Shown: in pieces, positions 1 to 4,018 of the stretch
Position numbering within the stretch: position 1 is the stretch's first letter
How the letters are laid out: each line of letters starts with the position of its first letter
NCBI GenBank assembly: GCA_963758525.1
Contig: CAVWVQ010000003.1
Span: forward strand, 3,872,001-3,936,000
DNA length: 64,000 nucleotides
From: an uncultured Phycisphaerales bacterium
GTDB taxonomy: Bacteria; Planctomycetota; Phycisphaerae; Tepidisphaerales; Tepidisphaeraceae
Direction: 5' to 3'
The notes under the pieces: generated by a model
Told to the model about the DNA's origin: nothing
The model's database searches: none
The model's input: only the letters and a program-made list of their open reading frames with translations
Program-made: the position numbers and the translations under genes

Positions 1-1123
1 TCATCTCCTCTTCTTGTTTGACAGGTTGTTGCTTAGCAGATTGTTGCTTGAGCCGGGCCTTGTTGGCCGCCCGCTCGTGTCCGGTGGGCTCCTGGCCCTG
101 GTAGGCCGTCCCGTCGCGGACCATGGCAAAGAGGACACGCAGCAGGCGTCTTCCCATCGCGACGTTCGCCTTGGGCTTGACCATGTGTCCGATCAGCCGC
201 TGGCGGATCGCCTCCTGCTTCGCGTCGGAGCGGCAGAGGGTGACCGCGGCCTTGCACAACGCCCAGCGCAGCGTGGCGCTGCCCGCCTTGGTGATGTGAC
301 CCGACTGGGTCCGGCCGGCCGACTCCTGGTTGTCGGGAGTCAATCCCGCCCAGAACTCGAGGGTGTCGGCGTTGGGAAAACGGGAGAACTCGCCGATCTC
401 CGCGGCGATGATGCACGCCCAGATCTCGTCGATTCCCGGCACGCTCTTGAGAATCGCAATCAGGGAGGCGAATCGCCGGTCGCGGTTGGCAAAAATGATT
501 TTCCTGCGCAGGCAGTCCCGCTGTCGCTCGATCAGGCAGACCAGGTCCAGGAAGTTGCCGAAGGCTTCGCGCTGCACGTCCTTGAGCAGATCGCCATTGG
601 CCAGCAGCCATTTCTGGGCGCCGACGCCGTCCAGCTTGGGACCGCCAATGTTGGCGGCCAGGAGCATCGACCGCATGGCGTGCTTGGCGCGGGTGAGGGT
701 GCGGGACAAATGCCGCCAGTGCCGGCCGAGCTTGCGGAGCTGCATCACTGCTTCGGGGGCGATCCATCCCAGCGGGCACTCCCCGCGGGAGAGGCGCTGG
801 GCGATGTCGGCCGCGTCCTTGCGATCGGTCTTGCGCCGCTTACCCCGGAGGTTGGACAACTGCGTCGCGTCGGCGATCTCGATCTTGTCCACGCAGGAGC
901 GGAAGCGGTCGATGAACCACTCGACAAAGCCGACGGCTTCCACTGCCAGGCGGCTGGGACGCGGCAACGCCAGCATCCATTTTTCGATGCGGTCAACGCA
1001 CTTGGTGTCACAGGTCAGCGCGGCGATCTGCGTCCCCGAAGCATCGACAGCACACAGCGAGACGGTACACTTATGCAAATCCACGCCGACGAACGCGGCG
1101 TACGAAACAGGCACATCAGACAT
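1..1123 (-). mobile_element. IS110-family transposase (RuvC-like DEDD recombinase), 3' end runs off the window
   Basis: Manual minus-strand translation from ATG at 1123: MSDVPVSYAAFVGVDLHK...AVEAVG...KRRKTDRKDAADIA...LKSVPGID...AEIGEFSRF...WAGLTPDNQESAG...GHITKAGSATLRWAL. These are the GxDxHK, KTDxxDA and GLxPxxxxSG motifs of IS110. GGAG-like RBS upstream. Absent from the ORF track because there is no stop inside the window. Confidence 0.93.
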
Positions 1124-1198
1124 AACAAACTCCGTGTTAGGGACCAAGGGAACTTAGAACACTCCCGGAAGCGTAACGGCTTCCGCAGGCCCCTTCAC

Positions 1199-2211
1199 GG
1201 TTTTACGTTGGTGGAGCTTCTGGTGGTGATTGGCATCATCGCGGTGCTGATCGCGCTGCTCCTGCCGGCGCTGGCAGGCGCGAGTTCGAGGCGCGCCGGG
1301 TGGCCTGCATGAGCAACATGCGGCAGCTCGGCCAGTCGATGATCATGTACGCGAACGACAATAAGGGGTCGTTTCCGCGCGGGGTCTATTACCCGGATCT
1401 TTTCTACAGAAGCTCACCACCCTTGCCCGACACTTGGGCAGGGCTGCGCGGCTTCTCTGATCCGATTGCCAACAGTCCATTTGCCAATGCGACCAATCTC
1501 CTTGCCGATGACGTGCTCCCGCCCTGGCAGGTTGCCAAGCGCCCCGGCGACAATGACGTAACGGGCTGCCTTTTTCTCCTGCTTCGGACGTATCAGCTTC
1601 CCTCGGCCCTTTTTGTCTGTCCCGGACGCTACGACATGTATCCCGACGACTTCAGCAATACCTTCGGCGTCGCGGGGGCATCGACGGATCCGCAGCATCG
1701 ATCTAACTTCAGCTCCGTATACAATCTCAGTTACAGCATCTCCCTCCCATTCCCTCCTTCCTCCGCCTGGCGGCTGGGGTATCGCTGGGGTATTGCGGCA
1801 AATCCCGGTTTTGCCATCCTGGCCGACCTCAACCCGGGTGAAAAATACTCCGACTGCTGCTGCGTATCGCACAGCGGTTTGTATCTCAGCAACGGGCCGT
1901 CCACACCCACCGACGGCCCGCAACTTCAGAGGATGGCCAACAGCAGAAACCATAACAAAAAAGGCCAGAACGTTTTGTTCGCCGACGGACACTGCGAGTG
2001 GGCGCCCACCGCGTTCGCGGGCTACAACCAGGACAACATTTACACAACGTGCCTCGCCTCGGGTACCACTGGCCTGGCCAATCAATGGACAACCGCCGCC
2101 CAGACGCCCAATCCATGGGCTCTGGCGAACCCGAATGACAGCATGATGCAACCGAACGAAGGCGATATGTTCGATCCCACGAATACCAATGGCGGCCTGG
2201 GGATCAACTGA
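1199..2211 (+). CDS. Prepilin-type N-terminal cleavage/methylation protein with H-X9-DG C-terminal motif (DUF1559-like); native leader missing; frameshift near 1285
   Basis: [25 protein letters not shown] (end of ORF 14..1312) continues after a 1-nt shift into ACMSNMRQLGQSMIMYANDNKG...HNKKGQNVLFADGH (ORF 1300..2211). Confidence 0.85.
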
Positions 2212-3270: not shown

Positions 3271-3588
3271 GTGAACGTCATCAGCCGAAAGAAGCTCAAG
3301 GAGTTCTACGAGGCAAAACCGGAACGAAAGAAGCACGCCGGCGCATTTGACGACTGGTTCAAGATCGCTCGCAAGGGTCGCTGGCAGAATTACCAGGACA
3401 CGAAAGCAACCTTCGGCCAAACGGACGTTGTCACTGGCGACACGGGTCGAACCGCCACAATTTTCGACATTGGCGGGAACAAATACCGCGTCGTCGCCCA
3501 CGTCGATTACACACGGCAGACCGTGAAGATCGAAGCGGTGATGGATCACAAGGAATATGACCAGGGTTCGTGGACGAAGCTTTTTTGA
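3271..3588 (+). CDS. higB: HigB-family toxin (mRNA interferase)
   Basis: MNVISRKKLKEF...IFDIGGNKYRVVAHVDY...HKEYD; toxin gene lies upstream of an HTH antitoxin. Confidence 0.88.
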   Translation: MNVISRKKLKEFYEAKPERKKHAGAFDDWFKIARKGRWQNYQDTKATFGQTDVVTGDTGRTATIFDIGGNKYRVVAHVDYTRQTVKIEAVMDHKEYDQGSWTKLF

Positions 3589-3598
3589 GGAGTTGAAG

Positions 3599-4018
3599 AT
3601 GCCCAGGACAAAATTCCGCAAGACTGCACGGATCGGCGACACCTACATGGGACTGGTCCGGCGTTTCCCGTTGAAGACGATCAAAAATGATGACGGGCAT
3701 GAGGAAGCAACGAACATGATTTCGGAGCTGATGGGCCGCGATCTCGACGCTGGGGCCGGGGACTACCTTGATGCATTGCTCGTGCTGGTGAACAAGTACG
3801 AGGATGAGCACCATGCCATCGACGCAACGATGACGCCGCAGCAGGCGCTTCGGTCGTTGATGGAGTCGAATACTCTGAGTCAAGCGGACATCGGCCGGAT
3901 CATCGGCAGCGAATCGGCGGTCTCGATGTTCTTGAAAGGTGATCGCGATCTGTCGAAGCCTCAGATCAAGAAACTCGCGGACCGGTTCAAGGTAGATGCC
4001 TCACTCTTCATCGGGTAA
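3599..4018 (+). CDS. higA: HigA-family antitoxin (HTH)
   Basis: LLVLVNKYEDEH...LMESNTLSQADIGRIIGSESAVSMFLKGDRDLSKPQIKKLADRFKV. Confidence 0.88.
   Translation: MPRTKFRKTARIGDTYMGLVRRFPLKTIKNDDGHEEATNMISELMGRDLDAGAGDYLDALLVLVNKYEDEHHAIDATMTPQQALRSLMESNTLSQADIGRIIGSESAVSMFLKGDRDLSKPQIKKLADRFKVDASLFIG

Follow-up and report, generated by a model that had tools for sequence, protein, structure and literature searches.

Seek or bridge RNA elements of the IS110 family include those of the IS1111 group, such as ISEc11, ISKpn4, ISPst6 and ISPa11, according to the accounts drawn on here (PMC11187229, PMC11208160). IS900, which also belongs to the IS110 family, carries an antisense ORF named hed that extends over the whole element, has no start signals of its own and is host-dependent (PMC8141618). 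As the hed frame uses host signals, a host-translated antisense frame is already known in the IS110 family, as far as this account of IS900 goes.

The window under study, a stretch of 64,000 nucleotides from a contig (C3) of an uncultured Phycisphaerales bacterium (G000), opens inside an element of 1,695 bp (G000:C3:3871510-3873204) with the IS1111 layout. Judged by this layout, it is an IS1111-type insertion sequence; the quick tree, computed without bootstrap, holds no named IS1111 members. The features of the locus are the following (window positions, or contig coordinates for features left of the window):

C3:3871528-533, left of the window: -35 box of the computed circle-junction promoter
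~C3:3871702-3871929, left of the window: predicted bridge RNA in the non-coding tail
C3:3871897-908, 3871817-827, 3871787-798 and 3871724-734: its four predicted guides
Left of the window, inside the element: far subterminal repeat
C3:3871990, left of the window: stop codon of the transposase
1..1204, minus strand: in-window part of the element, with ~490 bp more left of the window
1..1123, minus strand: IS110-family DEDD transposase of 377 aa, whose final codons fall slightly outside the window on its left side
2..1201, plus strand: portion of the open antisense frame that lies in the window, its codons in register with those of the transposase
1073..1075, plus strand: ATG in the pilin frame, antisense to the codon for the conserved His17, a possible internal restart
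1124..1201, plus strand: short element end, a K/R-rich stretch ending in RRPLHG
1130-1133, minus strand: ribosome-binding site of the transposase
1189..1197: subterminal inverted repeat of 9 bp, 7 bases from the near element end
1198..1205, plus strand: near junction, with the crossover TTY/A within a shared TTYA
1202..2211, plus strand: prepilin-type target gene, mature portion, with an H-X9-DG-like motif near the C-terminus

The transposase starts with the ATG at 1123 on the minus strand and matches DEDD_Tnp_IS110 (PF01548), Transposase_20 (PF02371) and NF033542 (184 bits, cut-off 140). Residues D15, E62, D100 and S268 are invariant among its relatives and D103 is nearly so, while the motif written GL-P----S(t)G for the IS1111 group reads GLTP....SAG, with SA replacing SG/TG. 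A long non-coding tail follows downstream of the gene (483 bases here, 396-717 in relatives), and the 9-bp repeats lie 7 bases from the left and 5 bases from the right end. In 68 of 76 elements, joining the ends yields a computed promoter composed of a -35 box, 17 bases and a -10-like box. A circular form was not seen in four runs of contigs. The end-to-end junctions of L082 and L105 stem from two different elements arranged in tandem.

On the plus strand, the junction reads RRPLHG-FTLVELL, with the Gly codon at 1199-1201 and the Phe codon at 1202-1204. The target gene is split after Phe+1, and the position of the crossover at TTY/A, deduced from the junctions, means that the element supplies both Gly-1 and Phe+1. 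The target has the hallmarks of a prepilin (G/A at -1, F at +1, E at +5 and a hydrophobic helix), matches N_methyl (PF07963) and scores above the cut-off of TIGR02532; the mature pilin beyond the prepilin motif gave no family match. An A24 prepilin peptidase is encoded by the host genome. The 75 bases that separate the transposase ATG from the prepilin motif are stop-free and the nearest in-frame ATG lies at 1073, as the earlier note had described. Its statement that the pilin gene has no start of its own does not hold, since a Shine-Dalgarno sequence and an ATG precede the native leader MSKYTARKREG at G000:C3:3871474, outside the element and left of the window.

The genome of 6.47 Mb contains four copies of the element, which differ from one another at six positions. 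All four reside in prepilin genes, which are four different genes entered in one orientation at the identical base, and the displaced native leader that the earlier note proposed to look for beyond the far end was found with its start codon at every copy, ending in Gly or Ala. A motif scan of the 6.47 Mb returned 46 candidate prepilin sites but did not pick up two of the four that are occupied. The copy at C3:2706497 interrupts an otherwise intact allele. At G000:C3:4128498-4132368, adjacent pseudopilin genes of one cluster each harbor a copy, and the leader of the second gene overlaps the stop of the first. At the window copy, the far-end leader and ribosome-binding site are similar to the ones found at a paralog that is 86% identical to the gene, which means that leader and body belong together; at this copy, the one that could be tested, the suggestion that the element shuffles paralogs finds no support. 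Compared with the same paralog, one base is deleted between 1284 and 1285, which is why the window ORF stops at 1312, and as assembled the pilin of the window copy is, by its sequence, broken by a frameshift, a position that none of the four runs of contigs spans. The target and its downstream neighbor (1202-2719) form an inverted duplicate of a pair ~12 kb away (G000:C3:3858900-3860516), with identities of 86% for the target gene and 77% for the neighbor. Further downstream, two short ORFs at 3271-4018 presumably resemble a HigB/HigA-type toxin-antitoxin pair.

Relatives of the transposase number 894 at an E value of 0.001 or better. The nearest named one is 85% identical and, together with the prepilin set of the genome, points to a probable planctomycete host. 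Two transposase motifs led to 54 genome loci and the best 80 of 183 metagenome loci, and these 134 loci were chosen by transposase alone and not by target. Of the genome loci, 49 carry planctomycete titles and five, mostly on short contigs, carry titles of other groups. The viral contigs searched yielded no relative, and in a sample of 400 other genomes of the phylum, whose assemblies often lose such elements, neither a transposase match at E 1e-60 nor the end motif was present. A sister clade with a transposase about a third identical has both the ends and the target in common; its tail RNA is differently built, with recognizable guides. The search for this clade in 301 genomes gave five weak matches, one of which is the element of L006 itself, and L190, the sole remaining weak match placed in the tree, fell outside the clade.

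The earlier note had supposed that the whole clade targets prepilin codons, and the junctions bear this out. Leaving aside 13 loci without the near end and 10 that end too soon, 111 of the 134 loci are readable, and in 104 of them, which are related and partly duplicates, the junction lies at codons for F-T/S-L-x-E. Two of the other seven join another element end and five join something else, two of these being prepilin-like. At position -1, 102 of the 104 loci have G and the other two have A, and an in-frame native start is present at all 66 loci with flank. L156 was rejected as an insertion, because an unrelated IS110 element merely neighbors a prepilin gene that has its own start. Insertions away from typical prepilin motifs occur in L016, L088, L090 and L104, and the transposases of the first three contain one or two antisense stops. 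In L123 and L131 the element is located at a prepilin G-F site that is reached in frame by a long protein; this protein has a PEP-CTERM-like tail and forms a natural and very long N-terminal extension.

Some prepilin genes carry traces of the element. Leaders that end in RRPLHG and share the element's end bases occur without an adjacent transposase at G000:C3:4773152, C3:687693, L179 and L120, and these are likely left-over element ends adopted as leaders, to go by their bases; the reverse origin, in which the element captured an RRPLHG leader, may also apply. Truncated elements in front of a prepilin gene (L178, L187) retain the leader-like end and the first transposase codons. Tandem arrays are present in L105, L108, L132, L134 and L082, where two IS110 clades with transposases 28-40% identical occupy one prepilin gene. 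In tandem pairs with transposases 33-40% identical, the frame stays open over 2.8-4.2 kb. The first element's end restores a target site for the next one.

The structured RNA with a target-matching loop that the earlier note anticipated was looked for in the tail, where a predicted bridge RNA with four guides was found. Four similar modules have variable cores that are read as the guides: the first equals the Gly/Ala-Phe codons in pilin sense, the second the reverse complement of the Phe-Thr-Leu codons, the third the near end of the element and the fourth the reverse complement of its far end. In the fold obtained from an alignment of 32 of the 43 extracted tails, the two target guides oppose each other in one internal loop. 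When a two-loop fold is used in which the donor loop is opened by hand, 96.8% of the cells pair, and two-sided changes occur in 23 of 43 pairs, more than in any of 500 shuffles, although this comparison is favored by a structure drawn from the same alignment. With each of 43 clusters represented by a single element, covariation between the left target guide and the sites hit is evident, with 30.3 observed against 19.6 shuffled for the base that decides between Gly and Ala, 22.7 against 12.6 for the third base, and 31.6 against 22.0 for the third base of Phe. The right target guide showed no covariation at its variable positions in rows of which 13 of 97 took the donor guide wrongly. The single-sequence fold of the tail is weak (z -1.78), and an Rfam search of the tail returned no relevant family. 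Taken from these alignments, a bridge RNA likely steers the element to prepilin codons.

The most distinctive property of the element is found on the strand opposite its gene. The pilin frame stays open for 565 codons over the whole element, from the native ATG through the tail, the antisense of the transposase and the short end, while the other two frames of the element contain 7 and 21 stops. Relatives were compared using 76 loci with both ends, which correspond to 72 distinct sequences in 49 clusters, and 28 further loci lack an identified far end. No in-frame stop occurs in 66 of the 76 complete elements (40/49 clusters), and the length, which ranges from 1,584 to 1,899 bp, is a multiple of three in 73 of 76. 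The tails of 65 elements contain 0 stops in 10,765 codons compared to 273-376 in the five other frames, a count that omits three relay elements (0 stops in their own shifted frame) and four that are damaged or mis-parsed; for the tail of this element alone, a shuffle gives P = 0.006. In the short end the frame has 0 stops in 82 distinct sequences (seven loci omitted), against 90 and 47 in the others, and two fixed motifs lie 69, 72, 75 or 78 bases apart. Kinship inflates the significance of these stop counts, and the contrast is large all the same.

For the transposase region to be open in antisense, the codons TTA, CTA and TCA must be absent from the gene. They are absent from this transposase and from 94 of 102 segments, compared to 3 of 29 other IS110 genes and 5 of 24 trimmed controls. 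Members with a GC3 of 0.45-0.62 contain 0-1 such codons, whereas controls of like GC3 contain 3-11. That the open frame is a chance shadow of a GC-rich gene, in which antisense frames in register are often open (255 of 1,761 host ORFs longer than 370 codons lack the three codons, by rough ORF calling), can be dismissed in view of 0 against ~300 stops in the non-coding tail, the openness of the low-GC members and the lengths in threes.

Substitutions in the tail are spread evenly over the codon positions (0.129/0.142/0.138, 19 close pairs), as they are in the short end, while the transposase keeps its third-position excess. Gaps in pairwise tail alignments are not enriched for lengths in threes (21/15/13), so only the total lengths are used. 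At the level of the sequences, the frame thus shows selection for openness and for a length in threes, and none on amino acids. Lys and Arg make up 35% of the short end (33% minus the fixed motifs) and 11-18% of its other frames, which supports selection on the element end to resemble a basic leader. The donated leader of the earlier note is retained insofar as the end is basic and leader-like; translation was assumed to begin inside the element, yet the open frame already begins at the native start. The outward promoter that had also been considered corresponds to a single weak 9/12 match at 1044-1071 (0.2 expected), whose -10 bases are present in 9 of 76 elements, and was dropped.

The ten elements with an interrupted frame fall into three kinds. 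L037, L042 and L092 are frameshifted. L034, L036, L040 and L044 are open until a stop 189 bases before Phe, which is followed after 57-60 bases by an ATG at the position of 1073 with a ribosome-binding site of -7 to -8 kcal/mol, so the internal ATG is likely used in this one sublineage. In L020, L083 and L087, the native leader is stopped within 36-54 bases, and an ORF of 537-551 codons crosses the element in another frame. It ends at, or a little upstream of, an ATG with a ribosome-binding site that opens a leader of 16-19 residues. Such stop-and-restart relay forms fall in three places on the quick tree, which has no bootstrap. The view that lineages with their own ATG are losers of the open frame was rejected, as the shifted frame is still open. 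By their arrangement, fusion and relay forms alike would bring ribosomes across the element to a cleavable prepilin.

The most far-reaching reading, with a probability of roughly 0.55, is that the element of 1.6-1.9 kb (more than 3 kb in tandem) acts as a throw-away leader of 530 to 1,100 or more residues that is clipped by a host protease, that the paralog family offers a free landing field, and that decayed ends turn into native leaders. The host promoter and the native start would drive translation through the whole element, as without a stop in the host frame host ribosomes would read through. Prepilin peptidase cleaves on the C-terminal side of a Gly or Ala that is preceded by basic residues. 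At the rebuilt Gly-Phe site it would remove a leader of ~580 residues and release the normal mature pilin unchanged. In the relay sublineages, coupled stop and start codons that end in a short new leader would replace the fusion. Read-through of the element and its removal as a leader by prepilin peptidase, taken on its own, is the explanation preferred here and is rated as rather probable. Counting against it, the donor guide and the inverted repeat likewise determine Gly-1 and the letters RPLH. A strongly hydrophobic 19-mer in 11 of 66 read-through peptides could misroute the leader, and in the literature searched no prepilin peptidase cut behind a leader of hundreds of residues was found.

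A doubtful but serious alternative is that the open frame only keeps ribosomes on the message, preventing polarity or decay, and that the prepilin starts at the ATG or GTG antisense to His17 with a leader of 43 residues, leaving the long fusion as waste. This alternative amounts to the leader donation of the earlier note combined with relief of polarity. A start codon is always present at this position (ATG in 13 and GTG in 46 of 59), with a median ribosome-binding site of -5.5 kcal/mol compared to -2.7 kcal/mol for other in-frame starts. The site is weak in the present element (-4.1 kcal/mol), however, no more than 5 of 62 fusion elements attain a value of -7, and the bases of its codon are dictated by the transposase protein. 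The group of L034, where a stop precedes a strong site, fits an internal start, and the short new leaders of the relay lineages represent a workable solution of this type. Most lineages lack a stop before the restart codon, so that read-through ribosomes would occlude the restart and make the fusion anyway. Read-through and restart at the His17-antisense codon may both operate.

It is improbable that the open frame merely spares downstream genes from polarity while the pilin is lost until excision, as with other IS110 elements. Avoidance of polarity likewise predicts the lack of stops and the lengths in threes, copies do lie in gene clusters (the two adjacent pseudopilin genes), and the pilin of the window is frameshifted. 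Left unexplained by it are the K/R-rich and acid-poor end, the restriction of residue -1 to G or A, and the relay start with its short leader right before the pilin. Moreover, 63 of the 70 judgeable downstream frames run at least 90 codons, with seven of the 104 stopping earlier and 34 too short to judge.

Very improbable is an antisense protein that serves the element itself, as proposed for IS900 hed, with host genes targeted for their expression signals. Such a protein would account for the frame being retained where it is unfused to the pilin, in the relay forms of 537-551 aa; its tail and end, however, show no codon-position pattern of substitution and the third positions of the transposase are normally free, the tail varies from 396 to 717 bases, and there is no family match outside the pilin motif.

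Seen next to the described systems, the element has a DEDD transposase, a short left and a long right end, and subterminal repeats with a 7-base extension in common with the IS1111 group, and further a guide RNA downstream of the gene, a circle-junction promoter and one target orientation, in so far as the accounts used here portray that group. The transposase is longer (377 aa, compared to 330-350 aa in the group; PMC11187229, PMC11208160). Unlike what these accounts give for the IS1111 group, the target consists of the codons for the cleavage site in a family of host proteins, and the element is free of stops in the host frame over its full length. With IS900, as portrayed in its account, it shares an antisense ORF over the entire element that relies on host signals. 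IS900 targets translation initiation signals (PMC8141618), whereas the present element lands within coding sequence after the leader and, unlike IS900 in that account, continues in frame to the remainder of the host protein and re-creates a protease site. The guide of ISEc21 is likewise directed to codons that specify a conserved protein motif; this element targets catalytic codons of IS3 transposases and has its guide upstream, the account used here describing no restoration of the target product (PMC11187229). The system would allow a direct test of why antisense frames of the IS900 type exist. The Piv invertase acts on type IV pilin genes. In Moraxella, it is an IS110-related enzyme of the IS492/IS621 branch that inverts a fixed segment (PMC11187229), and this description sets it apart from the mobile element of IS1111 layout found here. 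Targeting of prepilins or a rebuilt protease site by an IS110-type element is unreported in the literature searched, which included few subscription papers and no supplements.

A single stretch of DNA here combines a transposase gene, a predicted guide RNA, a recombination end and a stop-free antisense frame, and would offer a natural bridge RNA adapted to a target that varies through codon degeneracy. The system would also make it possible to test which leader length is tolerated by prepilin peptidases. Inteins and IStrons insert in conserved coding sites and leave the host product intact. In contrast to both, the element has no self-splicing part, and the host prepilin peptidase would remove the N-terminal insert. 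It would thereby join RNA splicing and inteins as a third route to a harmless insertion in a conserved coding site, one in which the insertion borrows a processing enzyme of the host and the element erases itself at the protein level.
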